In this document: positions 18,996-55,775 of the stretch, piece after piece
How positions within the stretch are numbered: the stretch's first letter is position 1
Layout of the letters: every line of letters begins with the position of its first letter
Assembly: GCA_001872725.1 (NCBI GenBank)
Contig: MNWR01000017.1
Location: 1,982-65,981 of the forward strand
Length of the DNA stretch: 64,000 nucleotides
Direction of reading: 5' to 3'
Source: Proteobacteria bacterium CG1_02_64_396
GTDB taxonomy: Bacteria > Pseudomonadota > MNWR01 > CG1-02-64-396
The notes under the pieces: generated by a model
Told to the model about the DNA's origin: nothing
What the model saw: the letters and a program-made list of their open reading frames with translations, nothing else
Database searches by the model: none
Position numbers and translations under genes: made by a program

Positions 18996-19046
18996 TGTGA
19001 TATTTGACGTAGACCCAATGGTCCCATGCTCGGCTGAGGTGGAAGT

Positions 19047-23560: not shown

Positions 23561-24010
23561 TTAACCGTACCCCGGAGGAAGCCTTGAAATCCAGCGCTCC
23601 ACCGCCCAAGGCGCCACCTCGGCCAATCGTCCGGCGCTCACCCCCCAAAATCTCGCCTTAACTTGGGCAAAACGGGGGTCGGCAAGCCGCACCAGCCCCC
23701 AGGCGGTTAAGGGGTCCAGCCCATGGGCCGAATCGCCCAACCGCCCCCCGAAGCGGTGCAGTGCGGCGGCGGGCAGGGGGTGGATCCGCCCGGCGGGGCG
23801 GGTAGGGTCGAGCAGCGCGTCGACGATCCACAACCGCTTGGGAACCACCGGTTCGGCCAAAAGCCGGGTGAGGTCGCTCCAGGCCAGCCGCACCCAAAGG
23901 TCGGGGCGACGGCTTCGCGCCAACCGCGCCAGTTCGATCCCCACCGCGTCGTGTTCGGTCAGATCGTTGCCCAGCCCCACAAGACCAAAGCAGGGGGACT
24001 CACCCCTCAT
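23561..24010 (-). CDS. [NiFe]-hydrogenase maturation endopeptidase (HoxW/HycI/HybD family)
   Basis: It has GLGNDLTEHDAVG, IVDAL and SAHGL metal-ligand motifs. It overlaps the stop of the large-subunit gene. Confidence 0.8.
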   Translation of the reverse strand: MRGESPCFGLVGLGNDLTEHDAVGIELARLARSRRPDLWVRLAWSDLTRLLAEPVVPKRLWIVDALLDPTRPAGRIHPLPAAALHRFGGRLGDSAHGLDPLTAWGLVRLADPRFAQVKARFWGVSAGRLAEVAPWAVERWISRLPPGYG

Positions 24011-25316
24011 GGCGCACGCGCAGGTCGATCAGGTGGGTTGCACACGAAATACAGGGGTCGTAGGCGCGGGCGAGCATCTCAAGTTCACGGCGCAGCGGCG
24101 CCTGATCCCCGGTTCCCCCTGCCCCAGCCCCCCCCCACCAACGTCCGGTCAAACGCTCAATATCTTGCTCCAGCGAGGCCAGATTTTGGGCGGTGGGGGT
24201 GACGATGTCGCAATCGGTCACCACCCCGTTTTCAACCGTATAGGCGTGAAAGAGGGTGCCACGGGGGACTTCAAGGGCGGCAACCCCTTGCCCCGACGGG
24301 CGCGTTCTCAGAACCGGGTCGGGACGGCGCCCGGCGTGCAGGGCGATCTGTTCGATCAAGGTCAGCGCCCGCTCCAACGCCCAAACCAACTCGATGTACT
24401 GCCCAGCGTGGTTGGCCCCCGATCCGGCCTGCTCCCACATCGGCTGCCAACGGCGCCACAGCGCCCCGGCCGCCCCATCGAGCCGTGCGCCGCTGTGAAA
24501 ACAGCGGGCCGCCGCCCCCACCATGAAGGGCTGTTTGGCGTAGAGCGACTGTTTGGCGGTGGAGTGGCCCACCACATGTTCGTGCACCCGGCTGCGAAAA
24601 TCGGCCAGCCCGACCGGCTCGAATCCGGTGGCGAGCAACCGCTTGCCCCGCAAGCCGTAGCCCGCCCCTTCAGGCTCTAGGGCGACCCAAAGTTTAGGGC
24701 CGGGTTGGGGGGTCGCCTCGATCAGGGTTTCGACCAGCCCCAGCAGGGCATCGGCATCCTCTCGGGCCTGGGCCACTTCGGAGGTCAGCGCGGTGAGCAC
24801 CTCCCGGTCAGGGAACAGCCCCGCCCCCCCCACGGTGATGTTCATCGGATGGATCGCCCGCCCTCCGATCCGCTCCTGAATCAAATTGCCGACCCGCTTG
24901 ATGTTCAGCCCCTTGACCACCGCGTCATGGTGGGTTTGGGCCATCGCCAAAATCCCGGTCGCCCCCACCGCGTCGGGGGCGGCCAGGGCGAACAGGTGCA
25001 GGGCGTGGGATTCGATGGTTTCCCCCACATTGAGCAGATCGCGCAGCGCCTGCACCTCGGTGTCGACCTCGATCCCCAGGGCATCCTCCAGGGCGGCAAC
25101 CGAGGTCAGGGTGTGGGCCGCCGAGCATATCGAACAGACCCGGCTAACGATTCCCGGCACCGCCTCGACCGGTTGACCAACCAACAGCACCTCGAAAAAC
25201 CGGGAGCCCTCGAAGATGTCGCTTTGGACTTGGGTGGCGCCGTCGGGGCCGACCTCGACCCGAATGCCGCCGTGCCCTTCGACACGGTACAGATGGGGGA
25301 TGGCGATGGTGGTCAT
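24000..25316 (-). CDS. [NiFe]-hydrogenase large (catalytic) subunit, short group-3-like form
   Basis: 438 aa from ATG 25316, with RVEGHG, the N-terminal RVCSICSAAH motif and the C-terminal DPCISCATH motif followed by a short cleavable tail. Confidence 0.9.
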   Translation of the reverse strand: MTTIAIPHLYRVEGHGGIRVEVGPDGATQVQSDIFEGSRFFEVLLVGQPVEAVPGIVSRVCSICSAAHTLTSVAALEDALGIEVDTEVQALRDLLNVGETIESHALHLFALAAPDAVGATGILAMAQTHHDAVVKGLNIKRVGNLIQERIGGRAIHPMNITVGGAGLFPDREVLTALTSEVAQAREDADALLGLVETLIEATPQPGPKLWVALEPEGAGYGLRGKRLLATGFEPVGLADFRSRVHEHVVGHSTAKQSLYAKQPFMVGAAARCFHSGARLDGAAGALWRRWQPMWEQAGSGANHAGQYIELVWALERALTLIEQIALHAGRRPDPVLRTRPSGQGVAALEVPRGTLFHAYTVENGVVTDCDIVTPTAQNLASLEQDIERLTGRWWGGAGAGGTGDQAPLRRELEMLARAYDPCISCATHLIDLRVRHEG

Positions 25317-25424
25317 GGGATCTCTGGGGGGGGTGAGTGGGCAAAGATCAATCGTTCGGCCTACGTCAAACACCGGCATCGCCTACCAGCACGGCGCGGT
25401 GATGGAGCATAACCTCTCGGTCAA

Positions 25425-25445
25425 TTTATACCGGAGTTTATACCG
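25425..25445. promoter_or_regulatory. AT-rich direct repeat TTTATACCG x2 (12-bp phasing) upstream of the hydrogenase large-subunit gene
   Basis: The copies are at 25425-25433 and 25437-25445. The minus strand reads GGTATAAA..GGTATAAAT, which is -10-like, about 110-130 nt upstream of ATG 25316. Confidence 0.35.
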
Positions 25446-25508
25446 CCCCAGTGGCACAAAAATGTCGAAACCACCGTTGGTGGTTGTCTTACTTAAGGAA
25501 GCGCCGCT

Positions 25509-27131
25509 TCAGGCGTCGGTTGCGGCCAAACGCCGCGCACCCGACCCGTCATACCCCCCGCCCTCGCCCCCCATCCCCTGCCGATAAACCCGGACGCAAT
25601 CCCGCCCCTCGCCTTTGGCGTGGTACATGGCCCGGTCGGCGCATTGGATCAACTGCTCCTCCGATTGGGCGTGATCGGGATAGAGCGCCACCCCGAGACT
25701 GGAGGAGATGTTGAGATTCTGCCCCTCGACCTGAAAGGGCCGACTCAGCGACAGCCAGATGTGCTCGGCAACCGCCACCGCCCCCTGTTCATCCTTGATC
25801 GCGGGGAGCAACACCACGAACTCGTCGCCGCCGATGCGAGACACCGAATCGGTTTTGCGATTCAGACAATTGCGAATTCGCTCCGCCGCCGTCTTGAGCA
25901 AATCATCACCGATGTTGTGACCGTAACGGTCGTTGACCGGCTTAAATGCGTCGAGGTCGACGAAGATCAGCGCCACCGACCCCTTGATCTGAGCGGCACG
26001 GGCGATCTCTTGTTGCAGGCGATCAAGAAACAGCGAGCGATTCGGCAGGCCGGTCAAGGGATCGTGGTAGGCCAGGTGCTCGACCCGGTCCTCCTTGAGC
26101 TTGCGGTCGGTGATGTCGTAAAACCAACCCAAAACCGTCGGTCGATTTTGATACTCCATCGAAAAGTAGGAGGCCAGCACCCACTTGCGCCAGTGCTCCC
26201 CTTTGGGGGCCCGAATCTCGATCAGTTTGTTGACCACCTGCCCCCCTTTGGCCAACACCACCTGTACATCGAAATAATCCTGGGCTTGGGCGTAATACTG
26301 AACGGGGACCGTCCCGATGGCCTCTTCCGGGGTCGATTCGATCAACTGGGCATAACTGGCGTTGGCAAAAATCACCTTGAAGGTATCGGCATCGGCGATC
26401 CGGGTGGCCACGGGGCTGGTTTCGAGCATTTGGTGCAACTGCCGCTCGTTCTCGGTCGCCTTGAGCCGCAGATGTTGGTTCTCCTCCATCCGACGGCGCG
26501 ATTGGCGGGCGCTGGAGAGCAGGAACACCAAAAACAGGGCCGTCATCGCCCCCATGCCGAGCGAAATCGAGTCCCCCTCGCTCGAAAGAAACCCAATTTG
26601 CGGCAGCAAAACCGGAAAAAGAAAACCTCGGGTTGAAATCGGATCGATGGCCAAGGTTGTGGCGGCCCCGGCACACAAACCGGCCAACACAAAGGCGACG
26701 TAGATTTTGTGGGCGATGTCGCCGGAAGGGGCGAGCAAAACCCCGCCAATCCCCCAGACGATGCCGGTGGCAATGGCGGCCATGCGGAAGCGGCGCAGAC
26801 GCCGACTCGCATCCGACGGGCTGGCGGAATCGTTTTGTCGTTTCCAGGGAAGGTACAAAACCGTGCGGATCAACAACACCGCAGCGAGGGCGGCGGACCA
26901 ACCCAGCAGCAACGTCGGGTCGATCACCGACGCCTGAACGAACACCAAAATCACAGCAAGGAGGGCGCTGATGGCGATGGAGGCGGGCAGATGGGCGTAC
27001 AGCAGATCGATCTGCTCACCCCGATACGGGCCGGAGGAGGAATCGTTCGGGAAGGGGGGATTGAGGCCGGGCAGCGCCATCGCTTCGGCGAGGGGGATGG
27101 CGTTTTTTTCGGATGCTCGTGGGTGCGCCAC
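25509..27131 (-). CDS. Membrane-anchored PAS-GGDEF diguanylate cyclase
   Basis: 540 aa with about 6 TM helices, a PAS region and an active-site-type RIGGDEFVVLL. Confidence 0.9.
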   Translation of the reverse strand: MAHPRASEKNAIPLAEAMALPGLNPPFPNDSSSGPYRGEQIDLLYAHLPASIAISALLAVILVFVQASVIDPTLLLGWSAALAAVLLIRTVLYLPWKRQNDSASPSDASRRLRRFRMAAIATGIVWGIGGVLLAPSGDIAHKIYVAFVLAGLCAGAATTLAIDPISTRGFLFPVLLPQIGFLSSEGDSISLGMGAMTALFLVFLLSSARQSRRRMEENQHLRLKATENERQLHQMLETSPVATRIADADTFKVIFANASYAQLIESTPEEAIGTVPVQYYAQAQDYFDVQVVLAKGGQVVNKLIEIRAPKGEHWRKWVLASYFSMEYQNRPTVLGWFYDITDRKLKEDRVEHLAYHDPLTGLPNRSLFLDRLQQEIARAAQIKGSVALIFVDLDAFKPVNDRYGHNIGDDLLKTAAERIRNCLNRKTDSVSRIGGDEFVVLLPAIKDEQGAVAVAEHIWLSLSRPFQVEGQNLNISSSLGVALYPDHAQSEEQLIQCADRAMYHAKGEGRDCVRVYRQGMGGEGGGYDGSGARRLAATDA

Positions 27132-27163
27132 CGGGCGACTCCTTTGGCAGGACTTTCTTCGAT

Positions 27164-27636
27164 CTAAGGAAGCGCCGATTGATTCGGCGTTTCCCTGGGA
27201 GTATGTCGGACCTGAGGTTCGGCCACGGGGTGGCCTCCTGCGCGCAATGGCCCCTGCGTCGGTCCAGGCCTAACCTGAAAACCCCCATCCCGGCGTCATC
27301 CCAGAGCAGGCGGGGATCCAGCAGTCGCGGGGGCGACAGCGTTGGGGGGAATGGGGACGCGGCGGGGGGGGACGCAATCGCGCCGGGGGCGGCGCTCCTA
27401 CCGCGTCGCATCAGGGCAATCGCGCCGGGGGCGGCGCTCCTACCGCGTCGCATCAGGGCAATCGCGCCGGGGGCGGCGCTCCTACCGCGTCGCATCAGAG
27501 CAATCGCGCCGGGGGCGGCGGCTCCTACCTCGTCGCATCAGAGCAATCGCGCCGGGGGCGGCGCTCCTACCGCGTCGCATCAGGGTGCCTACTAAGCTTC
27601 ATGGCGGAGTTTTGCCTTGAATCAGCGCTTCCCTAA
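27164..27636. mobile_element. MITE-like repeat family 1, copy D (expanded, 473 bp)
   Basis: The termini are CTAAGGAAGCGCCGATTGATTCGGCG and CCTTGAATCAGCGCTTCCCTAA. It contains a five-unit 42-bp tandem array. Confidence 0.7.
27374..27584. repeat. Tandem repeat, 42 bp x 5 (one unit 43 bp)
   Basis: The unit is GCAATCGCGCCGGGGGCGGCGCTCCTACCGCGTCGCATCAGG. Each unit carries a GCGCCG-GGGG-CGGCGC hairpin. There are no spacers. Confidence 0.9.
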
Positions 27637-27795
27637 AAAATGCCCTCCCGTCGTGAGGGATGGGTCGACGGGAGGGCAAAGTGGGGGCGGCGGCGATGGT
27701 GGGGGGATGCCGCCACCCCCGGTCGACCCATCGAATCCGTCGACGGGCCGATCTATGGCTTTCGTATGTAAGGGCGCCGCTGGGGGCAATCCGCT

Positions 27796-28242
27796 TCAAA
27801 TCCCCCGCAGCCGGGTCAACCGCTTTCCAACCTCGTCGGCCACGCTGCGGGTGACGGTCAGCACGACCCCCAGCGCCGTGGCATGGGCGCTCACCATCAA
27901 CAGCAGGTAGGAATCCAAACACGGCACCTTGATACAGACCGTGGTGAGGGAGCCCGATTGCAGGGTGAGCAGATCGAGTTGTTCGGCCGACGCTGCGTCG
28001 GTGTGCACCGCACTGGCGGTGGCCTCGCCGATGGCGATCAACGAGCTGGCCAGGGCCGCCATCTTGCCGATTTGGTCGCTGGTCACCCCAACCGAACACA
28101 GGTTGAAACCGTCGGGCGAGCAGAGCACCGCCGACCCTTTGTGGGTCAACCGCTGCGGCAACCCCTCCAGGGCGGGCTGAACAAAACGGCCAAAGGCGAC
28201 GGAATCGGTTTTCCACCCCAGAACTGGGCCGGACGAACTCAT
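27796..28242 (-). CDS. Roadblock/LC7 (MglB-like) domain protein
   Basis: 148 aa with the pattern GSAVLCSPDGFNL...LLTLQSGSLTTVCIKV typical of the Roadblock fold. The start overlaps the GTPase stop (ATGA). Confidence 0.7.
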   Translation of the reverse strand: MSSSGPVLGWKTDSVAFGRFVQPALEGLPQRLTHKGSAVLCSPDGFNLCSVGVTSDQIGKMAALASSLIAIGEATASAVHTDAASAEQLDLLTLQSGSLTTVCIKVPCLDSYLLLMVSAHATALGVVLTVTRSVADEVGKRLTRLRGI

Positions 28243-28823
28243 GCACTGATCTCCAAATCGGGAACACTGATGGCCGAAAGGGCCATGGCCACGGCGGAGC
28301 GCACATCCTCGGGGCGTCGAGGATCGGCGCAGATCAAAGGGGCCAAGGGGTTGAACTGGGCAAGCACGTTGTAAAAACCTTCAAGCTGCTCCTCCTCCAC
28401 CGGCTCGGTCATACGGGTCACCGCCACCGAGAGAACCTCGGGGGCGATGTAGCGGCGCAGAACCTCAAGCCAGATTCCCAAGTCGCGTTCGGCCTGGGGG
28501 GCATCGCCGTAGACCCACAACACCACGGCAACGGCGCTGGGCAGGAAGGTTTGCCACATGGCGTCGAAGCGGTATTGCCCCGGTAGACCGAAGAGGGCAA
28601 TACGCTGTTTTTCATCGAGCTTGATCTCACCGTAATCGAACCCGACGGTGGTCCTGGCTTTTTCGGGGTTGGCCTTGTGGCGCTCGGCGGTGAAAACGTC
28701 GGTATCGACCACGGCAATATCTGAAATCGCACGCAGGGCGGTGGTTTTGCCCACCCCAAAGGGGCCGACGAAGACAACCCGGCGCTCGTGGTTATGGCCT
28801 AACTGCACGGTATCGATGGTCAT
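28239..28823 (-). CDS. MglA-like small Ras-superfamily GTPase (COG2229-type ATP/GTP-binding protein)
   Basis: 194 aa with P-loop GPFGVGKTT and switch II LFGLPGQYRF (PGQ as in MglA). There is no canonical NKxD. It has ATGA overlaps with both neighbours. Confidence 0.75.
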   Translation of the reverse strand: MTIDTVQLGHNHERRVVFVGPFGVGKTTALRAISDIAVVDTDVFTAERHKANPEKARTTVGFDYGEIKLDEKQRIALFGLPGQYRFDAMWQTFLPSAVAVVLWVYGDAPQAERDLGIWLEVLRRYIAPEVLSVAVTRMTEPVEEEQLEGFYNVLAQFNPLAPLICADPRRPEDVRSAVAMALSAISVPDLEISA

Positions 28824-29569
28824 TGGAATTTGTTGAGAAAGCGTTGGAAGAGACTGGGACCGGCCGAGTCGGAACGCACCACGCCCCCGGAGGCCCCGCC
28901 CCCATCCGAGCGAATCTGCAACGTGCCCCCCTTATGGGTGTCGGCGAGCAGGCGGTCGAGCATCTGGGCATCCCCCACGAATGCGGTCAGCTCCTCGTGC
29001 GGGACATACCCCATCAGCATTTTTCGGGTGGCCGCCAGCAAACGCATTTGCGGGTCTTGGTAGCGGCTGAGATTCGGCCAGCGTTTCAGCCGTAGGTAGT
29101 TCCCCCTCCACGGCGCCCCTTGGCGCTCCGGGAGGCTCTGCGCCGGGGGGGTATCGCCCCGACTCTGAACCTGCGGCTCCGACGGGGCGGCCTGCGCACG
29201 GGGGAGGTGCTGCGTTGGGGCAGCGGTTTGGCGGCCCACATCGACACGCATCCTCAGTAGGTGCTTCACAATGAGGGTCACCCCGTTCGCGGTGACCGGT
29301 TGTTGGCAAAACACCCAGCTGCCGTCGGGAAGATCGGTCAGCTTGTGGGCCAACGCGATCTTCCTTGCCTTAAATCCCGCTGAAGGCAAAGCCTCCAGCG
29401 CCTGCCCCAGGGCCATAGTCGCATCGATCACGATCCACCCCGCCCCTTGCGGCTCACTCACCCAAACCCAAACCCCGGCGCACTGTTCCAGCAAGGTTTT
29501 GAACCGCTGGACCTGGGCCGACTCCGGATGCGGTGTCCATAAGGTTTGAATGGATGATGGGGCTGTCAT
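28820..29569 (-). CDS. Hypothetical protein (two domains joined by a Pro/Gln-rich linker)
   Basis: 249 aa with no motif I recognise. It is translationally coupled to the GTPase gene and occupies the position that DUF742/CvnC holds in conservons. Confidence 0.55.
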   Translation of the reverse strand: MTAPSSIQTLWTPHPESAQVQRFKTLLEQCAGVWVWVSEPQGAGWIVIDATMALGQALEALPSAGFKARKIALAHKLTDLPDGSWVFCQQPVTANGVTLIVKHLLRMRVDVGRQTAAPTQHLPRAQAAPSEPQVQSRGDTPPAQSLPERQGAPWRGNYLRLKRWPNLSRYQDPQMRLLAATRKMLMGYVPHEELTAFVGDAQMLDRLLADTHKGGTLQIRSDGGGASGGVVRSDSAGPSLFQRFLNKFQ

Positions 29570-29581
29570 GTCGCTTTCCCT

Positions 29582-29962
29582 TTACCGACAAGCCTTGGCT
29601 ACATCATCGAGCGCACGGGGCAGAACCACCGAAAGCAACATGCCCAGATTGGTCTTGGTGGTATCGAGCATGATCCCCTGCAACATCTCCTTGCTGTGGC
29701 GGATGATGAGCATGGTCTTGTCGGTTTCGAGGTCGAGCATGTAGAAGCGGTTGAGCGGGGGGAATTCAGTAGCCCTGTAGGCCTCTTCAAGCGCGTCGGT
29801 GATCTGGTTGAACAGGGCGACAGCGGCGGGCTGTTGGTTGATACCGGCCAACGACAGACCGTCGCGACGATTCCAAATATCGGTGGTGATGAGCCCCTCT
29901 TTAAGGAAGGACCGTACCGATTCGACGGATCGATCGAGGGCCGCAATATCGATATCGTTCAT
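29582..29962 (-). CDS. Small Roadblock/LC7-like protein (paralog 1)
   Basis: 126 aa, with DIWNRRDGLSLAG...MLIIRH...LGMLLSVVLPRA. By eye it is about 40-45% identical to the 30108..30491 product. Confidence 0.55.
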   Translation of the reverse strand: MNDIDIAALDRSVESVRSFLKEGLITTDIWNRRDGLSLAGINQQPAAVALFNQITDALEEAYRATEFPPLNRFYMLDLETDKTMLIIRHSKEMLQGIMLDTTKTNLGMLLSVVLPRALDDVAKACR

Positions 29963-29988
29963 GGCTCAAGGGCTCCTATTGGGCGGGG

Positions 29989-30102
29989 TAAAGGAAGCGC
30001 TGATTGAATGGCGCTTCCGAGCGGTCCACAGATGGGCCGCCAAAATCAGGAACGTAAGCGTGCCGATTCAGGGCAGGAGCCTTGAATCGGCACTTCCCTA
30101 AA
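29989..30102. mobile_element. MITE-like repeat family 1, copy E (minimal 114-bp form, no hairpin module)
   Basis: TAAAGGAAGCGCTGATTGAATGGCGCTTCC...CCTTGAATCGGCACTTCCCTAAAG. It lies between the two paralogous small genes. Confidence 0.75.
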
Positions 30103-30107
30103 GAGAT

Positions 30108-30491
30108 TCAGCGGCGGGCCTTGGCGACCATGGCAAGAGCGCGGGGCACGACCACCGCAAGCAGCACGCCAAGGTTCACCTTCTTGCTGTTCAGCAACAG
30201 ACCTTGCTGAATGTCCTCGCCATGAAGAATCACCATGGCAATGTGGTCATGATCGAGATCGCTCAGGTAATAGCGGCTCAGCCCGGGGAACCCGGAATGG
30301 TGCAGGGTCTCGCGCAACTCCCCGGTGATTCGGGTAAACAACGCCACTGCGGGCGACTGTCCGTAATGCCCACCCAGTGAGAGGCCATCGGGCGTCCAGA
30401 GATCGGTGGCGATAAGGGCATCCTTGAGCAGCGATTTCAGCTCCTCGATGCAAGCGTCCAATTGGGCGATATCGATTTGGATGTCCTTCAT
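30108..30491 (-). CDS. Small Roadblock/LC7-like protein (paralog 2)
   Basis: 127 aa, with DLWTPDGLSLGG...MVILHG...LGVLLAVVVPRA. Confidence 0.55.
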   Translation of the reverse strand: MKDIQIDIAQLDACIEELKSLLKDALIATDLWTPDGLSLGGHYGQSPAVALFTRITGELRETLHHSGFPGLSRYYLSDLDHDHIAMVILHGEDIQQGLLLNSKKVNLGVLLAVVVPRALAMVAKARR

Positions 30492-30933
30492 ACGCGGGTG
30501 CCTTTCCGATCATTCGGGGTGCTATGGGGTGCGACCGTCAACAACGGTCGAGTGCGCCGGAATTCGTCGATGCGTTTGGTATGGATGAACGCTGCCGACG
30601 TGGGGGAATGCTAAGAATCGAACCGCCCCGCCAACATTCGTACGAATACCTATTACCCTCTCCCCGCCGGGAAAATCCCCACCCCCCTCCGATCAAGCCG
30701 CCCGACACAGCGGCCATGGCCGCTGGACGACCTCATGGCCACTCAAACGCCTCGAAATCCGCTGGCGCCGACTACGTAGAAATACGTATTGCGCCGCCAC
30801 GCCACCGCCCGGCAGTCTTCCCCCCAACGTGATCGGAACGTATTCAACCGCGCGCACGCACGAGAACCGCCAAGGCCCCCCGCCCAGCCGAGGCGATCGG
30901 CCCAATCCTTTTCCCATGGAGGGTTTAGAACCC

Positions 30934-33900
30934 ATGCCCGCTGTTGTGACCGACCCTGCGCAGCCTGCCTCGGGCGTTCTTCCGGACGACACCTCGTTCC
31001 GCCGTCTGGTGGAAAACTCGCCCGACAACATCATCCGTTACGACACCGACGGACGGGTCTGCTACCTGAATCGAAGGCTGGCCGATTTGTTGGGGATAGA
31101 TCCCAAGGCGCATTTCGGCAAACGGATCGCCGAGATCTGGCCGGATGGACGGTATGCCGCCCTGGAGCGGGCGGTGCGGCTGGCCGCTCAAAGCGGCGAG
31201 GAATCGACCCTTGAGATCGACCACAAGGTTGGCGCGCAACACTGGGTCTATTCCGAAATTCGGGTGGTGGCCGAACGGGATGAAACGGGGGGCATCGTCG
31301 GGGTGTTGGCTTTTGGCCGGGATATCTCCGCCCCCAACCCGACCCGCTGGCGGCTGCACCATCTACTCGAAAAGATGCCCGGCATCGTCTGCGTTCTGCG
31401 CCGCTCGCCCGAGGGGCACGACAGCCTCCCTTACGTCAGTCCGGGGATCGAACCCCTCTTCGACCTCGGCGCCGAGGCGGTCCGTGAGGATGCAACGCCG
31501 TTGTACGCACGGATCCACCCCGACGACCGCCCCCTGCTGGTCGACGCCCTCACCGAGTCGCTCCAATCCCTGGCCCCTTTTCAGCTCGAATTGCGTGTCC
31601 ACGAAGCGCGCCAAGCCGAACGCTGGGTCGAGCTGCGGGCGTTGCCAACCCGAGAGGCGGACGGGGCATTCCTGTGGTACGGCATCTTGCTCGACATCAC
31701 CGAGCGCAAACGGATGAAGGGGGCGCTGGAGCGGCGCGAACGCGAATTTCGCACCCTGGCCGAGAACAACCCCGATCCCATCTTCCGCTACGACCGGGAG
31801 GGGCGGCGTCTGTACGCCAACGCGGCGGCATGCCGGATCGCGGGGCGTCCCGCCGAGACGCTGCTGGGCAAAACGCCCGAAGACGGCGCCTTACTGAACG
31901 AGGGGGAGGCGGTCAAGCTGGCGCGGGCCATCGATGGGGTGGTGCACAGTGGCACCGAGGGGCGCCTGGATCTGCACATCCCCGATGTCGGCGGTCATGG
32001 GCAAGATTTCGACGCCCTGTTGGTTCCCGAGCGGGGTCCGGGGGGGGCGGTGGAAACGGTGCTGTGCATCGGTCGCAACATCACCACCTTGCGCGAGTCC
32101 GAGCGCCAGGCGACCCGTTTTTTTACCAACATGCCGGGCTTTGCCTACACCCTGCACCGCCCCCATCAGGGGCCGCCCCGCCTCACCTACGCCAGCCCCG
32201 GCATCGAAGCGCTTACCGGCCTGAAACCGGAAGAGGTTCGCGCCGACATGGCGCCGCTGCTCGCCCTGGCCCACCCCGACGACCGATCCCGCCTCGAAGC
32301 GGCCATGGCCGAATCGGCCCGGTCCCCCGGCTCTTTTCACATTGAGGTCCGCGTGCTGCATCCGGGCCAGCCGGAGCGGTGGATCGAGGTCCGTTCCAAA
32401 GCCGAACCCCAGAGCGACGGCAGCGCCGCATGGCACGGCATCATGCTCGACATTACGCCGCGCAAAGCGGCCCAACGACAGATGGAGTTGCTGAAGCGGG
32501 CCATTGAGCAATCGGGGGAGGCGCTGTTCGTCAACGACGAGACGCTGCGCTTCGTCGAGGTCAACGAGACCGCCTGTCGCGCCCTCGGCTACACCCGCGA
32601 GGAGCTCCTCGGACTCACCCCCCTCGACATCGACCCCGACGTCACCCGTGAGGCCTGCATGGCCATGATGCGCACGGACAACCATTCCACCCAAACCCTC
32701 GAAACCCGTCACCGCACCAAAGAGGGGCGCCTCTTCCCGGTCGAGTTGAATTGCAGCGTCTTCCTCCACGATGGGGTGTGGCTCCACCTTGCCATGGCAC
32801 GCGACATCGGCGAACGCAAGGCGGCCCAGCAGCGCATGGCGTTGTTGGAGCGAGCCATCGACCAGTCGAGCGAAGCCTTTTTTTTAAGCGACGAGCATCT
32901 GCGTTTCGTCGAGGTCAACGAGGCGGCCTGCCGCGCCCTCGGCTACACCCGCGAAGAGTTGCTGGGCATGACCCCCCCCGACATCGACCCCGACATCACC
33001 CTTGAAGCCTGCTTCGCGCTCCGAGACGAGTACCAAAAAGGGTCCAAAACCTTCGAAACCCGCCATCGCAACAAAGAGGGGCATATCTTCCCGGTCGAGG
33101 TGATCGGCTCGGCTTTTATGCACGAGGGGAAGCGGTACGGCCTCACCATGGTGCGCGACATCCGCGAGCGTAAAGACCTTCAAGATCGTCTGGCCCGCAG
33201 CGAGCAGGCGTTCCGCTCCCTGACCGAAAACCTGCCCGACCACGTGGCGCGCTGGGACTGTGAGGGGCGCTACCTCTACATCAACCCCGCCCTGGAACGG
33301 CTGGTGGGAATCTCCAACGCGGCGGTGGTGGGCAAGCGGCCCTGCGAACTGGTCCCGGAAGCGGCAGAGGCCGACGGCAACATCGCCAGGGTGGTGACCC
33401 GTCGCGCACCCGAGCTGCTGACACGGGTCGCCATACCCGCGCCGGATGGCGGCTTGCGTCTGCACGATCTCAAGATGGTGCCGGAATTCGGGCCGGATGG
33501 GTCGGTGGTCAGCGTGCTGGGGTTGGGGCGCGACATGACCGAGCTCTACCGTCTGCAAGAGGAGGTCTCGGCTCGCGAGCAGGATTTTCGCAGCCTGGCC
33601 GAGAGCTCCCCCGACCACATCATCCGCTACGACCTGGAGCACCGCATTCGCTACCTCAATCGGCAGCTCATGCAACTGCTTGGGGTGAATCGTTTGGAGG
33701 AGGTGATCGGCAAACGTCCCGACGAGGTCTGGACCGACGGTCGCTTTTCCATCCTTAGCCAGGCCACCAACCGCGCCGTGGCACGGGGTAAGCTGCTCAC
33801 CCTGGAGCTACCCGTCCCCGCTGAAAACGGGTTGAAATATCATCAGATCATCGTCGTGCCGGAACGGGACGAACACGGCGCCCCGATCAGCACCCTCGTC

Positions 33901-35040
33901 TTCGGGCGCGACATCACCGCCATCCGCGAAACCGAGCGCCGCCTGCAACATTTCATCAACACCCTGCCCGGTTTGGCGTTCGCCCTGCGTATGACCCCCG
34001 ATGGCCACAGGAGTATGCCCTTCGCCAGCCCCGGCACCTTGAACCTCGGTGGCCTGACTCCCGAGGAGGTGCGCGACGATGCGGCGATCCTGTTCGATCT
34101 GATCCACCCCGACGACCGACCGCTCGTCGATCGGGCCATCGCCGCATCGGCCCAGACCTTGGGTCCGCTCTACGTCGAATTCCGCATCTGCCGTTCGGGG
34201 TTGCCCGACACTTGGGTCGAGTGTCGCTCCCTGCCCGACTTGCAACCCGACGGCGCCACCCTTTGGCACGGCATCATGCTCGACATCGACGCCCGCAAGC
34301 AGGCCGAGGCGCAGGCCCGAGCGGGGCTGGAGGAGTCCTCTCGCTTGCAGCGTCTACAAACCGCCAATGAAATGGCCACCCTTCTGGCCCACGAGATCAA
34401 TCAGCCGCTGGCCGCCATCGCCGCCTACGCCGAGGCCAGCCTGAAACAACTGAGCCGTCCCGGATCGATCCCCCATCGTCTGACCACCAACCTTGAAAAA
34501 ATCGGCCAGCAGGCTTTGCGGGCGGGCGACAGCATCCGCCACATGCGCAGCTTCATCCGTCGCGGCCACATCGACCCGGCCCCCATGAACCTGAGGACAT
34601 CCCTTAGCCGGGTCTGCGACCTGATCGCCTCCTATCCCCTGGGCGACGACATCCGGCTGGCGGTCGAGATCGAGGGGAGGCTTGTGCCGGTGTTGGGGGT
34701 GGAGGTTCAGGTAGAGCAGGTGCTGCTCAACCTGCTGCGCAATGCCTACGATGCCATTCACGGCTCGGGGGTGGCGCAGGGGACGATCCGGATACGCATC
34801 CGGCAGACCGAGCCGATGGTGCAGGTGACGGTTCAGGACAGCGGTCCCGGGGTCGACGCCCCGACCGCCGCACGACTGTTCGAGCCGTTTGCCAGCACCA
34901 AGGCGCACGGACTGGGGATGGGGCTGCGCATCAGCCGGGGTCTGATCGAGGCCCACGGCGGGCAACTCTGGGTCGAACCGCGCACCCCCGGCGGCTGTTT
35001 TCATTTCACCTTGCCGATGGTTCCCACCGATGCCGACTGA
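30934..35040 (+). CDS. Multi-PAS (about 9 PAS/PAC units) cytoplasmic sensor histidine kinase
   Basis: ORF 30829..35040. ATG 30934 has GGAGGG 10 nt upstream. WHGI(M/L)LDIT PAC signatures recur. It has H-box LAHEINQPLAAI and an ATPase domain (DSGPGV, GLGMGL). Confidence 0.9.
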   Translation: MPAVVTDPAQPASGVLPDDTSFRRLVENSPDNIIRYDTDGRVCYLNRRLADLLGIDPKAHFGKRIAEIWPDGRYAALERAVRLAAQSGEESTLEIDHKVGAQHWVYSEIRVVAERDETGGIVGVLAFGRDISAPNPTRWRLHHLLEKMPGIVCVLRRSPEGHDSLPYVSPGIEPLFDLGAEAVREDATPLYARIHPDDRPLLVDALTESLQSLAPFQLELRVHEARQAERWVELRALPTREADGAFLWYGILLDITERKRMKGALERREREFRTLAENNPDPIFRYDREGRRLYANAAACRIAGRPAETLLGKTPEDGALLNEGEAVKLARAIDGVVHSGTEGRLDLHIPDVGGHGQDFDALLVPERGPGGAVETVLCIGRNITTLRESERQATRFFTNMPGFAYTLHRPHQGPPRLTYASPGIEALTGLKPEEVRADMAPLLALAHPDDRSRLEAAMAESARSPGSFHIEVRVLHPGQPERWIEVRSKAEPQSDGSAAWHGIMLDITPRKAAQRQMELLKRAIEQSGEALFVNDETLRFVEVNETACRALGYTREELLGLTPLDIDPDVTREACMAMMRTDNHSTQTLETRHRTKEGRLFPVELNCSVFLHDGVWLHLAMARDIGERKAAQQRMALLERAIDQSSEAFFLSDEHLRFVEVNEAACRALGYTREELLGMTPPDIDPDITLEACFALRDEYQKGSKTFETRHRNKEGHIFPVEVIGSAFMHEGKRYGLTMVRDIRERKDLQDRLARSEQAFRSLTENLPDHVARWDCEGRYLYINPALERLVGISNAAVVGKRPCELVPEAAEADGNIARVVTRRAPELLTRVAIPAPDGGLRLHDLKMVPEFGPDGSVVSVLGLGRDMTELYRLQEEVSAREQDFRSLAESSPDHIIRYDLEHRIRYLNRQLMQLLGVNRLEEVIGKRPDEVWTDGRFSILSQATNRAVARGKLLTLELPVPAENGLKYHQIIVVPERDEHGAPISTLVFGRDITAIRETERRLQHFINTLPGLAFALRMTPDGHRSMPFASPGTLNLGGLTPEEVRDDAAILFDLIHPDDRPLVDRAIAASAQTLGPLYVEFRICRSGLPDTWVECRSLPDLQPDGATLWHGIMLDIDARKQAEAQARAGLEESSRLQRLQTANEMATLLAHEINQPLAAIAAYAEASLKQLSRPGSIPHRLTTNLEKIGQQALRAGDSIRHMRSFIRRGHIDPAPMNLRTSLSRVCDLIASYPLGDDIRLAVEIEGRLVPVLGVEVQVEQVLLNLLRNAYDAIHGSGVAQGTIRIRIRQTEPMVQVTVQDSGPGVDAPTAARLFEPFASTKAHGLGMGLRISRGLIEAHGGQLWVEPRTPGGCFHFTLPMVPTDAD

Positions 35041-35638
35041 ACCCTTGATTTACGTCGTGGACGACGACGACCCCCTGCGCGACGCCCTGTGCCAACTGCT
35101 CGAAATGGAGGGATTCGTGGTGCGGGACTTCGCCGACGGCCCCTCATTTTTGGCCCATGTTCAACCCGACGATACGGGCTGCCTGTTGCTGGATGTGGCC
35201 ATGCCGGGGATGGATGGCATAAGGGTCCAGCGCATCCTCAAGGAGCGGGGGTGCGATATCCCCATCCTCTTTCTCAGCGGCCACGGCGACATCCCCATGG
35301 CGGTGGAGGCGGTGCACGAGGGGGCGCTGGATTTTCTTGAAAAACCGGTCCCCGGCTTGGTGCTGATCGCACAGGTGCGCCGCGCCCTGACCTCGGATCG
35401 AAAACAACGCGTCACCCAGGCCGAAGCCCAAAAGGCGCGGCAGAGACTCGGCCTGCTCAGCCCGCGAGAACGCGAGGTCTTCGACCAGGTGGTGGAGGGG
35501 CTGTCCAACAAGGAGGTCGCCTTGCGGTTGGGCATCAGCCACCGCACGGTGGAGGTTCACCGCAACAACCTGATGCGCAAATTGCAGGCCGATAGTCTGG
35601 CGGATCTCGTCAAACTGGCGGTGCTTGGCCAAGGCTGA
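35030..35638 (+). CDS. FixJ/LuxR-family response regulator (REC + LuxR HTH)
   Basis: It has VVDDDD...LLDVAMPGMDG and a C-terminal LSPREREVF...SNKEVALRLGISHRTVEVHR. It overlaps the kinase stop by 11 nt. Confidence 0.9.
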   Translation: MPTEPLIYVVDDDDPLRDALCQLLEMEGFVVRDFADGPSFLAHVQPDDTGCLLLDVAMPGMDGIRVQRILKERGCDIPILFLSGHGDIPMAVEAVHEGALDFLEKPVPGLVLIAQVRRALTSDRKQRVTQAEAQKARQRLGLLSPREREVFDQVVEGLSNKEVALRLGISHRTVEVHRNNLMRKLQADSLADLVKLAVLGQG

Positions 35639-35683
35639 ATGGCTGTTTCTGCGAGGGCTGCCAAGGGTCGTCCAGGGTGAGGT

Positions 35684-38600
35684 TCAAACCCGGTTCGGCT
35701 TTGGCTTCGGCGCCGTGTAGTCGCCCGCCAAGTGGTATCGATTTTTGCCCAGCGCCTTGGCGCGGTACATGGCCAGGTCGGCGGCTTGGATCAATGCAGG
35801 TCCGGTGTCGCCGTCGCCGGGATAAAACGCAACGCCGATGCTGGCGGTTAGATGTTGCTCCCCCACCTCGGTGGGGATCGGTTGGGCCAAGGCGACCAGG
35901 ATTTTCTCGGCGACCTGTTGCCCCCCGAGCCCCCCTCGACCTCCCCCAACAACACGGTGAACTCGTCCCCCCCCAGGCGGCAGACGGTGTCGCTTTGGCG
36001 CACGATGCCGGTCAGTCGCCGTGCGACCTCGATCAGCACCTCGTCGCCAACCCGGTGGCCAAGGCGATCGTTGATCCCCTTGAAACCGTCCAGATCGAGA
36101 AAGAGCAGGGCGAAGGGCTCCGCGCTGCGCCGGGTGCGCTGCATCGCCTGTTCAAGCCGGTCGAGAAAAAGCCCCCGGTTGGGCAGACCGGTCAGGTGGT
36201 CGCGGTGGGCCATACGGTGCAAGGTCTCTTCGCGCGCCTTGGCCTGGGTGATGTCGGTGAAGATCCCGACATAGTGGGTGACCGCTCCGCTCTCCCCCCG
36301 CACGGCGTCGATCACCAGGTGTTTGGGGTACTCCCGCCCATCCTTGCGCCGGTCCCAGATCTCCCCCTCCCACCGCCCCTCCTCCAGCAGGGCACGCCAC
36401 ATCTTCTGGTAGAAGGTCGCGTCATGCCTGCCTGAGCGCATGATCCGCGGGTTTTGGCCCACGACCTCTTCGCGGCGGTAGCCGGTAACCCGCTCCCAGG
36501 CGGCATTGACGTCGACGATGTTGGCATCACCATCGGTAATCACCACCGCCTCGCTGGTCCGCTCGAAAACCTTGGCTGCCAGAATCGCCTGATCGACCCG
36601 CTTGCGCTGACTCAAATCGGAGGCGAAGGCGACGTAACCCTCCAGCCGCCCCTCCTGGTGCAACGGCGAAATACTCAGCAGCAGCTCGACCGTATGGCCT
36701 TGTCGGTGCCAGGCGGTCATCTCGATCTCGCGCTGCGGAATTTGGTCGGGGTGGCGGCGCCAGTACCGCAAGAGCCCCCAGTGTTCCTTGGCCGTATACC
36801 GAATCGCCCGCTTCCCCAGCACCTCATGGCGGCGATAGCCCAGGATGCGCAGCATGGCGTCGTTGACCTCGACGATGCGCAGCCCCGGATCAACCACCAC
36901 GAACCCCTCGTTGCTGGTGGCGATGATGTTGCGGTAGCGGGCCTCGGCCTGTTCCAACGCCTGGGCCATCTCTTTCTGGGTGGTGATGTCCTCGATCAAA
37001 GCCAACACCACCCCCTCCCCCTCCTCGCGCAGCCTACGCACCACCAGCCTGGCCCACACGGTACGACCGTCCCGGCCCAGGTACCTTTTTTCAAGGGTGT
37101 AATCGTCGATCTCCCCGGCAATGAAACGGCGGTAGAGCTCGAAATTCATGGCACTGTCTTCGGGGTGGGTGATCGCCAGGAAGGTCCAGCCCACCATCTG
37201 CTGCGGGGTGTAGCCGAGCATTCCGGCAAAGGCGGGGTTCACTGCCAAAAAGCGCCCATCCCGGGCCGTCACCACCATGCCGATGCCGCTTTGTTCGAAA
37301 ACGGCGCGGAAGCGGTTTTCGCTGTGGGCCAGATCGCGGGTGGCGTCGTGGCGGGCCACCACCGCCCCGATCAACCCGGCATGGGCCTGAAGCGCCTCGA
37401 TCTCCCCGGCGCGCCAACGGCGGGGGGCACCACTGGCCAGGCCGAGGAAGCCCCACCACCCTTGTGCGGTGGCGATGGGGACCAGCAGCAGCGATTCGAT
37501 CCCATGGGGTTCGAGCACCGCCCACTCCGAGGGGGTGAAGTGGATCCGGTCGCGGATCAACACCCCTTCGTGGCACAGCGCCCCCTTCCACCAGCGCAGC
37601 CCTAAGCCATCCAGGGCGACATGGCGGCTCGACATCCCCTCGCCCATGCGCCAGAAGTGCATCAAGGGGGGAGCCTCGCTGTAGAGGTAAACCTGGGGAG
37701 CCTCGGCCGCCTGCCCCAGGTGTTCGAGCACCACGGCCACCCTCGCGCCCCAAGGGTCGGCCAGCAGGAATTGCTCGGCGGTGAAGGCCAGACAGGCGAG
37801 CAACTCGTCCTTGCGGTGCAGCTCCCCCTCCAGGCTCAGTCGCCGGGTGATGTCGGTCCCGACCCCCCCCAACCGCGCACCCCCCTCCCGGTCGCCGTCG
37901 AGCGGAAAACGGACCGTCAGGTAGGTGCGGCGCCCGCCGTTGTGGCCCAGCACCTCTTCGAACACCTGGGGCGATCCGGCCGCCAGGGTTTGCCGGTCGT
38001 GCTCCTCCAACACCTGCCACACCGATTGAGACCACAACTGACGGTCCACCTTACCGATCAACGCCCCCGGTTCGATTCCCGCCTGTTCGGCAAGCACCCG
38101 ATTGCCGAGCAGATACCTCCCCTGTTCGTCCTTCAAAAAGACCATGATCGGGCTGTGTTCCAGGATCGTGACCAGCAGATCCTCCTGCTCCTGGGCGCGG
38201 GCCCGCTCACGTCCCAAATGCTCGACCAGAACATCGAAGGCCCGCCCCATCCGGGCCAGCTCGTCCTGCCCCGACAGCTTGAGTTGCACCGAATAATCAC
38301 CCGCCGCCAACTGCGCCTCGGCGGAGCGAAGCAGGTTCATACGTGGGGCGACGGCGCGGTGGAGCAACCACCACATCCCCCAACCGAGCAGCAACAAGGG
38401 GATCGATCCGTACAACACCTGGCGTTCAACCTCGGACAACACCGTGCCACGTACCGTGCTTAGATCCTCGACCACCAGCAGCCGTCCCACGCTCGAATCG
38501 CCGAGGGAAACCGCCAGAGCACCCAACAGATAGGGGGAGGAGAACCGGGTTTGCAGAAGATCGGGACCGAGGGGAGGAAACGCGGTTGAGGGTACCGGCA

Positions 38601-38940
38601 ACGCCGCCTCGATCCGCTGACCGAGCAAGGGGGTGTGGAGCGACAGCAGGATGCGCCCCGAGGGATCGACCACCACCGCCTCGCGCCAACGCGACGAGCC
38701 GGCCATCCCTTTGAGGTTCCATTCGAGCAGACGCAAAGGGGCGACCTGGGGACCGGCCTGGTGGAGTTCGTCGTTCAGGGCGGCTAAATCGCGCAGCAGG
38801 GCGGTTTGGGAATCATACTCAAGTCGGTCGAGGGCCGACTGCCTGAACACAATCAGGGCCACCACCATCACCAGAAGCAGACCCCCGTTCAAGAACAGGG
38901 GCAACGTCCAACGCATGGGCCATCGGGTTAGTAGGTTCAT
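35684..38940 (-). pseudogene. TM-HAMP-PAS-GAF-PAS(x3)-GGDEF protein, reading frame broken inside the GGDEF domain
   Basis: ORF 35848..38985 ends just after RLGGDEFTVLLGEVEGG. The rest of the domain (QVAEKILVALAQPIPTEVGEQHLTASIGVAFYP...AMYRAK) continues in another frame (ORF 35684..35890). The switch lies in C/G homopolymer runs at 35921-35946. Confidence 0.75.
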
Positions 38941-39214
38941 AGCACCCCCCATAGGACTTGGGAGCACCGCGCACCACACTCTCAAGCCCCATTCCCCAGG
39001 TCTGGCAGGGTTCGAACATCAACCCCGCACCAAAATCCCGAGTTTAATACTCGGAATTGGAGTCTGCGCCGCATGAGAACGACTTGCAATATTTTGGTGG
39101 CTTAGATCACACAACAGAGGGGACTGGAGGCGGCCGCCCAAGGGGAGGCCTGTCCCCGAATGGGGCCACCTCCCGGGGACCCGACGAGGGGCGCACGGGA
39201 TCACCCCCCTCAAC

Positions 39215-40018
39215 TTACCCCCGGCCCAAATGTTGGGGGTCGGCGGCGTAACGTTCGGCCAGTTGCTCCCCCACCCAGGCGGGGGCCGAGTAGCGTTTGA
39301 GGGCGGCGACCACCGCCTCTTTGCTCAAACCCTTGCCGGCAAAGAGCTCGGCGGTGGCGTCGATGGCCGGATCGTCCACCGGCCCCCGACAGCCGGTACA
39401 GGGTTGACCGAAGGTGGTGCAGACCGCATCGCAACCGGCGCGGCTCAGGGGGCCGCAGCAGACGACCGCTTTTTGCTCGACCAGACAGGGGGTTTGGTTG
39501 ATGCGGCACTCGGTGCAGACGGTGCGATCCTCGGTTGGAATCGGCAAGCCGTTGAGCAGGTTGCCCAGGGCGCTCAACAGGTCGGTGCGGGTGACCGGAC
39601 AGCCGGGGATGGCGCCGTCGACCGCCACAAAGGCCGACAGCGGCAGCGCCTTGGTTTCATCCTGGTTGATGGCGGGCAGGGTGTGGCCGTAGACCTGGGC
39701 CTTGAGCACCTCGACCGGGATGGTGTTGCGCATGGCGGGGATCCCTCCCCAGACGGCGCAGGTCCCCAGGGCGATCAGGTGTCCGGCCCTAGCCCGAATC
39801 GCCTTGAGTTTGCGCTCTTCGGCCTCGGTGCAGACGCTCCCCTCGACGAAGGCGATGTCGAGCGGACCACCGTCGTCGAGGCGGGAATCGGCCATGCCGA
39901 AGGTGACCACCTGAATGTGGGCAACCAGTTCGAGGATCTCTTGCTCAAGGTTGAGCAGCGCCAGTTGATCCCCGGCGCAACCGGTGAGGCTGAAGATGCC
40001 GACGCGGGGCAGGGTCAT
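39215..40018 (-). CDS. [NiFe]-hydrogenase small subunit (NuoB-fold, three FeS cluster motifs, no Tat signal)
   Basis: ATG 40018 within ORF 39215..40147. It has SLTGCAGDQ, GTCAVWGGIP, PGCP and a C-terminal Cys-rich CTEC..C..CC..C...C..C..C region. Confidence 0.85.
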   Translation of the reverse strand: MTLPRVGIFSLTGCAGDQLALLNLEQEILELVAHIQVVTFGMADSRLDDGGPLDIAFVEGSVCTEAEERKLKAIRARAGHLIALGTCAVWGGIPAMRNTIPVEVLKAQVYGHTLPAINQDETKALPLSAFVAVDGAIPGCPVTRTDLLSALGNLLNGLPIPTEDRTVCTECRINQTPCLVEQKAVVCCGPLSRAGCDAVCTTFGQPCTGCRGPVDDPAIDATAELFAGKGLSKEAVVAALKRYSAPAWVGEQLAERYAADPQHLGRG

Positions 40019-55756: not shown

Positions 55757-55775
55757 GAATAATCAGGAACCTGAA

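Follow-up and report, generated by a model that had tools for sequence, protein, structure and literature searches.

We analysed a 64,000-nucleotide stretch of DNA from Proteobacteria bacterium CG1_02_64_396 (hereafter, the window), which encodes the small and large subunits of a [NiFe]-hydrogenase in two genes on one strand; 13.9 kb separates these genes, and signalling genes lie both between and next to them. The organism comes from the CO2-rich aquifer at Crystal Geyser and was sequenced at very high coverage (about 396x, as encoded in its name). The original prediction for this locus, which was made from the sequence alone, offered two readings: a sensory hydrogenase without partner subunits that feeds cyclic di-GMP (c-di-GMP) signalling, similar to the proposed group 2c, or a two-gene operon that was split by an inserted island. 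All of the genes that it listed are present, in place to within a few codons. Here we describe evidence that the enzyme is a four-subunit hydrogenase of group 3b, that its operon has come apart into three pieces, and that each piece adjoins a gene for a GGDEF protein.

A group 3b hydrogenase with separated genes

The large subunit (HyhL, or alpha) has the L1 motif (RVCSICSAAH) near its N-terminus and the L2 motif (DPCISCATH) at its C-terminus, and the histidine of L2 is followed by a 10-residue tail, LIDLRVRHEG. The small subunit (HyhS, or delta) begins right at the conserved core, MTLPRVGIFSLTGC, and has no twin-arginine translocation (Tat) signal. The reading frame for the maturation endopeptidase overlaps the end of hyhL by 11 nt. 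This protease is divergent, and its matches are weak but consistent: TIGR00072 (E = 4.5e-7, below the model's cutoff), HycI of a relative from the Magnetococcales or their allies (L001; tblastn, 2.7e-8), and PDB entry 5ija (E = 0.011), with the metal-binding D/D/H residues aligned (the GN..DD, DA and SAH positions). The position of the protease gene relative to hyhL also matches that in relatives. Thus, the three genes are what the original prediction took them to be, including the lack of a Tat signal in the small subunit and the motifs and tail of the large subunit. It had also stated that no genes for partner subunits, cytochromes or hyp proteins are linked to them, and we found no beta, gamma, hyp or cytochrome genes anywhere in the 64-kb window.

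Comparisons of the two subunits with known families place both of them firmly in group 3b (the sulfhydrogenase or Hyh type), whose members are cytoplasmic NAD(P)-linked [NiFe]-hydrogenases. The best NCBIfam models are those for sulfhydrogenase HydA and HydD, although the scores are far under the equivalog cutoffs (299 versus 880 bits for HydA and 171 versus 500 bits for HydD). Among proteins of known structure, the large subunit is most similar to the 3b enzymes of T. kodakarensis (294 bits) and P. furiosus (285 bits), as compared to at most 150 bits for groups 3c, 3a and 3d and at most 80 bits for group 1. Similarly, the small subunit matches the delta subunit of P. furiosus SHI (a 3b enzyme) at 174 bits, versus at most 87 bits for other classes. 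Homologues of the large subunit are named "sulfhydrogenase subunit alpha" by their sources. The sizes of the two subunits, which the original prediction had described as group-3-like, are 3b-like.

The sensory classes 2c and 2b are ruled out. In context, the L2 motif reads AYDPCISCATH, which is not the group 2c consensus (SFDxCLVCTVH, PMC4853749), and the best solved relatives all belong to group 3. Furthermore, both a C-terminal tail and a protease are present. Large subunits of group 2b lack the C-terminal extension and need no protease.

Relatives have a contiguous operon

In a collection of 5.8 billion proteins, the nearest large subunits are 47-55% identical to HyhL and are mainly from Magnetococcales and from metagenome-assembled genomes (MAGs). 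This collection contained no relatives at 55-100% identity, which might have had an intermediate arrangement. In the five closest relatives (L001, L002, L011, L105 and L106; 49-55% identical), the genes are contiguous in the order beta-gamma-delta-alpha, and in relatives' operons a HycI/protease gene often follows alpha. (Relatives' beta subunits contain Fer4_22, and their gamma subunits contain NAD_binding_1 and DHODB_Fe-S_bind.) Magnetofaba and another MAG also have contiguous genes.

We extended the comparison with 80 further 3b loci from reference genomes and typed every open reading frame in the loci against beta, gamma, delta, alpha, HycI, GGDEF and EAL queries. Among the matches listed, delta is directly upstream of alpha in every other locus that has upstream sequence, except for one (L027), and beta and gamma precede delta almost everywhere. 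Judging from these gene orders, the 13.9-kb separation of delta and alpha is highly unusual. Because the relatives and nearly all of the other 3b loci are contiguous, we take the ancestral state to be a contiguous four-gene operon (plus the protease). The original prediction had proposed just such a comparison with the closest genomes, and in those genomes the small and large subunit genes are adjacent and are accompanied by the standard partner subunits, without signalling genes.

Two of the loci in the comparison are of interest in their own right. L056 (7354-13911), from a Sediminispirochaeta sp. MAG, has a fused beta-gamma gene, delta, alpha and HycI, and the next gene, on the same strand as these, encodes a PAS-GAF-GGDEF protein. 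L027 (4657-11263), from a Marinifilum sp. MAG (DYDG01000014.1), has a lone 3b-type alpha subunit that ends in ...DPCISCSVH, without a C-terminal tail; genes for the small, beta and gamma subunits are absent within 10 kb. The gene lies directly after genes for REC-REC, FIST, PIN, PAS-PAS histidine kinase and small HTH-like proteins. If any of these loci encodes a sensory protein that derives from group 3b, this lone alpha is a stronger candidate than the enzyme of the window.

The partner subunits are on another contig

Besides the partners of the known relatives, a profile that was built from five beta subunits identified one extra beta subunit in the protein collection (P0286). It is present on 17 contigs and is 53-55% identical to the beta subunit of L001. 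On the contigs that we compared (L099-L104), genes for beta (PF17179) and gamma (PF00175 and PF10418) are present, and delta and alpha are absent. The next gene after gamma encodes a 436-amino-acid REC-REC-GGDEF protein of the PleD-like type, with two receiver domains and a GGEEF-type motif according to Pfam. The beta/gamma and gamma/REC-REC-GGDEF junctions are both 4-nt ATGA overlaps, and the REC-REC-GGDEF gene occupies the exact place of delta in canonical operons.

Four lines of evidence connect these contigs to the window. Their tetranucleotide composition correlates with that of the window at r = 0.957-0.960, which is nearly the same as for the two halves of the window (r = 0.961); unrelated loci reach at most 0.876, or at most 0.82 if their GC content is above 0.6. 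A 170-bp repeat that resembles a miniature inverted-repeat transposable element (MITE) lies directly 3' of the REC-REC-GGDEF gene and is 97% identical to positions 56711-56880 of the window, and a second repeat is shared at 88% identity. The contigs come from the same samples and the same project as the window contigs. The four subunits are also at the same distance from those of L001 (beta 53-55%, gamma 48%, delta 52% and alpha 55% identity). These comparisons make a strong but indirect case that the beta-gamma contigs belong to the same organism as the window. At NCBI, the P0286 beta subunit is listed under "Proteobacteria bacterium CG1_02_64_396" and also under an "Alphaproteobacteria bacterium CG_4_10..." MAG. 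A published analysis of CG1_02_64_396, which is from a subterranean aquifer, assigned it to the Zetaproteobacteria (PMC5714133), and the TypA protein of the window fits this placement, as it is at most 60-63% identical to any named protein.

This search overturns the view that the enzyme has no partner subunits, and the reading as a group-2c-like sensory hydrogenase does not survive: the enzyme is of group 3b and lacks the L2 motif of 2c, the small and large subunit genes of its relatives are neighbours, accompanied by beta and gamma but not by signalling genes, its own partners are encoded elsewhere in the same genome, and its tail and protease are retained. As a separate observation, L099 also encodes NuoE-like, NuoF-like and molybdopterin (formate-dehydrogenase-type) proteins on the same strand, 4.5 kb downstream of the beta-gamma-GGDEF genes (17757-21062).

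Each fragment adjoins a GGDEF gene

GGDEF genes occupy 4 of the 6 flanks of the three hydrogenase fragments, as compared to 0 of the roughly 61 other genes that we examined from the organism (p = 2e-5, Fisher test, post hoc). If 1-2% of genes encoded GGDEF domains, the chance of at least 4 in 6 would be 1e-7 to 2e-6. Three of these four flanks were part of the reason why the locus was reported, so the independent test is the beta-gamma locus. Taken alone, 1 of its 2 flanks is a GGDEF gene (p of about 0.02-0.04), and that gene is translationally coupled to gamma. The four GGDEF domains all retain a GG(D/E)EF motif and are only 30-40% identical to each other, which argues against an origin by recent duplication of a single GGDEF gene, or by homologous recombination among its copies; therefore, duplication does not explain the repeated adjacency. 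The association with c-di-GMP that the original prediction drew is strengthened by the independent discovery that beta-gamma is coupled to a REC-REC-GGDEF gene.

The enzyme appears to be intact

We aligned each subunit across 18 sequences and asked which positions that are invariant in the other 17 are altered here. These number 0 of 59 in alpha, 2 of 30 in delta, 1 of 18 in beta and 4 of 40 in gamma, which is no more than in a relative with the canonical operon (L002). All of the ligands for the Ni-Fe site and the Fe-S clusters are retained; the conserved cysteines of delta align with those of relatives, and the proximal-cluster motif is CAGD, as in the rest of the clade. On average, the subunits fall short of their sister sequences in identity to outgroups by no more than 1-4 points, so the rate of evolution is not markedly accelerated. 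Moreover, all five hydrogenase reading frames are intact in every assembly, whereas a neighbouring gene has decayed. From these sequences, it is most probable that a complete HyhBGSL enzyme and its endopeptidase are still at work, produced from separately transcribed genes.

How the operon may have come apart

The delta gene still precedes alpha on the same strand and within 14 kb, which argues for insertion or rearrangement between neighbours rather than for independent relocation. The interval contains at least four transcription units, with two genes on the opposite strand. We found no transposase, integrase or phage genes between delta and alpha. The GC content of the interval (0.61-0.66) does not set it apart from the remainder of the window, and partial copies of the region have the same tetranucleotide signature. 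Given the lack of mobility genes and of compositional anomalies, a mobile island between delta and alpha is not supported. Thus, the split operon of the original prediction holds as history, although the ancestor would have had four genes and the protease rather than two genes, and there are no signs of a mobile element.

An intergenic hairpin repeat (the D2 family: GGAAGCGC...GCGCTTCC, then GGCCGCCAAAATCAGGAACGT) is present in full and half copies (Table 1), and one of the full copies is directly upstream of the beta gene. The 14-nt "MITE terminus" that had been noted at 25492-25505 turns out to be a half copy of this common repeat and not a MITE. There is, however, a MITE-like element, whose copies are 97-98% identical to each other. 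One of them lies directly after the REC-REC-GGDEF gene, and the assemblies of L099 and L100 diverge from that of L101 exactly at the end of this element. In all, D2 hairpins or MITE-like elements are found at or near the junctions upstream of beta, after the REC-REC-GGDEF gene, between the PAS-GGDEF gene and hyhL, and upstream of the PAS-GGDEF gene. The same repeats are also common elsewhere in the window. Repeat-mediated rearrangement is a plausible mechanism for the splitting of the operon.

Two other repeats are near the hydrogenase genes. A "REP doublet" had been described at the small-subunit side, and the sequence there is indeed a perfect inverted repeat in the style of a REP element; it occurs just once in the window and all of the loci that we compared. 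Also, the GTPase operon and the PAS-GGDEF gene are separated by a gap of 660 bp, which contains a 42-bp tandem repeat.

Signalling genes and other features of the window

Domain searches confirm the PAS-GGDEF, GAF-PAS-GGDEF-EAL, multi-PAS kinase and FixJ-type regulator genes that were predicted originally. The HAMP-PAS-GAF-PAS-GGDEF gene is frameshifted, as had also been noticed: positions 1-92 of the GGDEF profile match in one frame and positions 100-161 match in another. The site of the frameshift has two G6 runs (35880-35920, GAGGGGGGCTCGGGGGGCA) and probably arose by slipped-strand mispairing. It is identical in all of the assemblies from independent samples, which excludes sequencing error as its source. 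The predicted GTPase/Roadblock operon is confirmed for the GTPase and for one Roadblock-like protein (27796-28242; PDB 3kye, E = 1.7e-4); the other three proteins (two of about 126 amino acids and one of 249) match nothing.

We also considered where transcripts might end. No terminator is predicted between the protease gene and the GGDEF-EAL gene, and the RNA there folds no better than shuffled sequences do; folding downstream of hyhS, up to the following gene, gives the same result. By a consensus scan only, the region's strongest terminator-like hairpin is located directly after the GGDEF-EAL gene and is the probable end of a predicted hyhL-protease-GGDEF/EAL transcript.

Table 1. Hydrogenase genes, signalling genes and repeats. 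Positions are in the window unless a contig is given.
Feature	Position	Strand	Remarks
hyhS, group 3b small (delta) subunit, 267 aa	39215..40018	-	PF01058; NCBIfam HydD, 171 bits
hyhL, group 3b large (alpha) subunit, 438 aa	24000..25316	-	PF00374, E = 4.6e-25; NCBIfam HydA, 299 bits
Maturation endopeptidase, divergent HycI/HybD type, 149 aa	23561..24010	-	TIGR00072; tblastn; PDB 5ija
GAF-PAS-GGDEF-EAL protein, 755 aa	21225..23492	-	68 nt after protease; GGDEF, EVL and DDFGAG intact
Strongest terminator-like hairpin of the region	21199..21219	-	Directly after GGDEF-EAL; consensus scan only
Membrane PAS-GGDEF protein, 5 predicted transmembrane segments	25509..27131	-	192 nt upstream of hyhL; GGDEF motif intact
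HAMP-PAS-GAF-PAS-GGDEF gene, frameshifted	35684..38916	-	298 nt after hyhS
Multi-PAS histidine kinase, 1368 aa	30934..35040	+	Domain matches
Response regulator, REC + LuxR/GerE (FixJ/NarL-type)	35030..35638	+	Domain matches
Five-gene operon	27796..30491	-	Ras-like GTPase, 28239-28823; Roadblock/LC7-like, 27796-28242; three proteins without a match
Intergenic hairpin repeat (D2 family), full copies	14925-14994, 18793-18862, 29991-30060, 56530-56599; L099:9795-9865		
Intergenic hairpin repeat (D2 family), half copies	2531, 25492, 27153, 43365		
MITE-like element, about 170 bp, with terminal inverted repeats	56711-56880; partial, inverted, 43213-43354; L099:823-959, 13261-13430		
Perfect 29-nt inverted repeat with 10-nt loop	40085..40152		Between Na+/H+ exchanger gene and hyhS
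42-bp tandem repeat, 5 copies, 96% matches	27374..27585		Copy number differs between assemblies of the organism

The rest of the window is ordinary chromosome, with aroE, pilBCSRD, coaE, typA, rho and rsmE. A few kb upstream of hyhS is a gene for an adenylate/guanylate cyclase with a FIST domain (45487-48807, minus strand). It is followed at 50473-52980 (plus strand) by a gene for an 835-amino-acid protein with a pyridine-nucleotide-disulphide oxidoreductase domain (FAD/NAD(P)), two cNMP-binding domains and a 2x[4Fe-4S] ferredoxin domain. These two proteins could form a pair in which a redox enzyme is regulated by a cyclic nucleotide. The stop-to-stop frame for Rho (59540-61309, minus strand) has 589 codons, about 175 of which are upstream of the Rho_N domain. 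A 495-codon frame on the minus strand (54275-55762) has a coding-like GC content at third codon positions, has no match in Pfam, and overlaps an rsmE-like gene on the opposite strand; it may not be a real gene.

A scattered metabolic enzyme and its alternatives

On balance, we favour the explanation that this is a metabolic 3b enzyme with a scattered operon that is co-regulated with c-di-GMP turnover, and we consider it to be probable, if not by a wide measure. In this aquifer bacterium, an affiliate of the Zetaproteobacteria, the ancestral operon would have given rise to three separate transcription units: beta-gamma-(REC-REC-GGDEF) on the other contig; delta, followed by the now-frameshifted HAMP-PAS-GGDEF gene; and (PAS-GGDEF)-alpha-protease-(GAF-PAS-GGDEF-EAL). 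The four subunits would still assemble in trans, as those of the split Hox enzymes of cyanobacteria do. Because each fragment shares or abuts a unit with a c-di-GMP enzyme that bears PAS, GAF or REC domains, hydrogenase expression and c-di-GMP turnover may be co-regulated, probably by redox or O2 status. This would tie the balancing of H2 and NAD(P)H to the decision between the motile and the attached state, with the hydrogenase as a metabolic enzyme that is wired into a signalling regulon rather than a dedicated sensor.

Several observations weigh against this explanation. The stretch from 21 to 53 kb is dense in signalling genes, including the FIST-cyclase and the cNMP-binding oxidoreductase. 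In genomes of iron oxidisers, about 9-12% of genes are regulatory, and in the Zetaproteobacterial type strain these genes (about 9%) are scattered across the genome (PMC3179512). This makes the enrichment statistics post hoc in part, and the junctions do not count as fully independent of one another. The GGDEF gene downstream of hyhS, one of the four, has been fixed as a pseudogene, which shows that this link, at least, can be dispensed with. We looked for a shared promoter or operator upstream of beta, delta and alpha (sigma-54, FNR or common k-mers) and the only common element was the genome-wide hairpin repeat. Across 82 other 3b loci, GGDEF genes are adjacent at the background rate, with L056 as the sole case among the matches listed; in L034, a GGDEF gene is about 7.5 kb away and on the opposite strand. 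Our search of the literature for a link between 3b hydrogenases and c-di-GMP found nothing relevant. Also, the evidence that places the beta-gamma contig in this genome is strong but indirect, and the contigs of the population are nearly clonal (99.9-100% identical), so that current selection cannot be tested from the ratio of nonsynonymous to synonymous polymorphisms (pN/pS).

Many of these points would be expected if an ordinary 3b operon had been broken up neutrally by repeat-mediated rearrangement, with GGDEF neighbours as a by-product of a signalling-rich genome. Hairpin repeats or a MITE-like element are at several of the junctions, and assemblies diverge at a MITE end; the region is dense in signalling genes, which are abundant and dispersed in the type strain; one GGDEF neighbour is a pseudogene; 3b loci from other lineages do not show the enrichment; and no common motif was found upstream of beta, delta and alpha. 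We nevertheless judge neutral scattering to be less likely, though it is the most credible of the alternatives. Against it are the GGDEF genes at 4 of 6 flanks versus none of about 61 other genes, the separately found beta-gamma locus that is joined by a 4-nt overlap to a GGDEF gene where delta canonically sits, and the lack of a predicted terminator between the protease and GGDEF-EAL genes. At the other extreme, the fragments might be decaying remnants whose function was lost after the break-up and which are on their way to becoming pseudogenes. The operon structure and translational coupling have been lost, the neighbouring gene already carries a frameshift, the protease has diverged strongly, and alpha (in the window) and gamma are slightly farther from outgroups than their sister sequences are. 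Yet none of the five reading frames is interrupted in any assembly, the Ni/Fe and Fe-S ligands are kept, each subunit has just 0-4 changes at invariant positions (no more than L002), and divergence is equal across the four subunits, which makes decay quite improbable.

A more ambitious idea is that a 3b hydrogenase was recruited as an input to c-di-GMP, with HyhBGSL reporting H2, the NAD(P)H/NAD(P)+ ratio or both directly to the PleD-like, PAS-GGDEF and GAF-PAS-GGDEF-EAL proteins that are encoded with it. We regard this as unlikely. Our estimate is about as low for a closely related version, in which a 3b-derived sensor of H2 or redox state, either by itself or together with beta-gamma, would act on the PAS/GAF/REC cyclases and phosphodiesterase by direct transfer of electrons or of a conformational signal. 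In that case H2 or NAD(P)H would set the level of c-di-GMP, much as proposed for group 2c and in analogy to the regulatory hydrogenases of group 2b. The enrichment of GGDEF genes and the translational coupling to one of them are consistent with such a sensor, and so is the fact that delta/alpha and gamma/delta are no longer coupled as usual. Redox cofactors can be bound by PAS and GAF domains, and L027, with its tail-less lone alpha beside a PAS histidine kinase, is a parallel oddity. But every catalytic feature of a 3b enzyme has been kept (the NAD(P)/FAD-type gamma, the FeS beta, the tail and the dedicated protease), the enzyme is unrelated to group 2, there are no fusions or novel domains on the subunits, one of the partner GGDEF proteins is broken, and the literature that we searched does not describe a sensory 3b enzyme. 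If recruitment were true, a sensory hydrogenase system would have arisen independently of groups 2b and 2c, in a lineage of iron oxidisers that inhabits redox gradients.

Group 3b hydrogenases are widespread and their physiological role is poorly defined; they are supposed to produce H2 as a redox valve or to regenerate NAD(P)H under hypoxia. If the fragmentation of this operon reflects its integration into c-di-GMP units, as in the co-regulated metabolic enzyme that we favour, then it would be a natural link from redox and H2 metabolism to the switch between motility and attachment, and the control of attachment by c-di-GMP is a central question for the iron-oxidising Zetaproteobacteria. With this locus, the uncharacterised "group 2c" idea also gains a counterpart that is concrete and can be tested. 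If the GGDEF genes are neighbours by coincidence, then this is an unusually scattered but ordinary hydrogenase, and it warns against concluding from a single contig that a hydrogenase is "partner-less".

Comparison with known systems

Like the hydrogenases of groups 2c and 2b (HupUV/HoxBC), the enzyme is cytosolic, and its genes are linked to those of c-di-GMP enzymes, as in 2c, and to that of a PAS kinase, as in 2b. It differs from both groups in its sequence class, its L2 motif, its 3b-like subunit sizes and its NAD(P)-type beta-gamma partners, and it differs from 2b in that the large subunit keeps its cleavable tail and protease. The gene that overlaps gamma has the REC-REC-GGDEF architecture of PleD-type response regulators; unlike the usual members of that type, it is the third gene of a hydrogenase beta-gamma operon.

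Split but functional hydrogenase clusters are known from cyanobacteria, in which hoxEF and hoxUYH can be several kb apart (PMC2674450). There, too, a multi-subunit soluble hydrogenase (of group 3d) is encoded in separate units, with the diaphorase part detached (PMC2674450). However, in the two-cluster hox pattern the small and large subunits stay together in hoxUYH, whereas here they are also parted, by four transcription units. The genes that are interspersed in cyanobacterial hox clusters do not encode c-di-GMP enzymes, in contrast to those described here.

The 3b operons of Magnetococcales and their allies (L001, L002, L011 and L106, and P0011 of M. marinus MC-1) are the closest for all four subunits, at 48-55% identity, and share the CAGD proximal-cluster motif and the C-terminal tail of delta (APAWV...DP..RG). 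In contrast to the genes described here, those operons are contiguous, in the order beta-gamma-delta-alpha(-HycI), with overlapping genes and no GGDEF neighbours. Within group 3b as a whole (P. furiosus SHI HydBGDA, T. kodakarensis, M. smegmatis Hyh), alpha and delta match the solved 3b enzymes best, and the enzyme has the beta (Fer4_22) and gamma (NAD_binding_1 and DHODB_Fe-S_bind) subunits, the cytosolic location, the C-terminal tail and the endopeptidase that are typical of the group. It departs from the group norm in having no single hyhBGSL operon, with beta-gamma on another contig and delta 13.9 kb from alpha; in the GGDEF gene that adjoins each fragment, which in the case of gamma is the overlapping REC-REC-GGDEF gene; and in its identity of at most 55% to known members. 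The absence of a single operon is a feature of gene organisation and not of the protein family.

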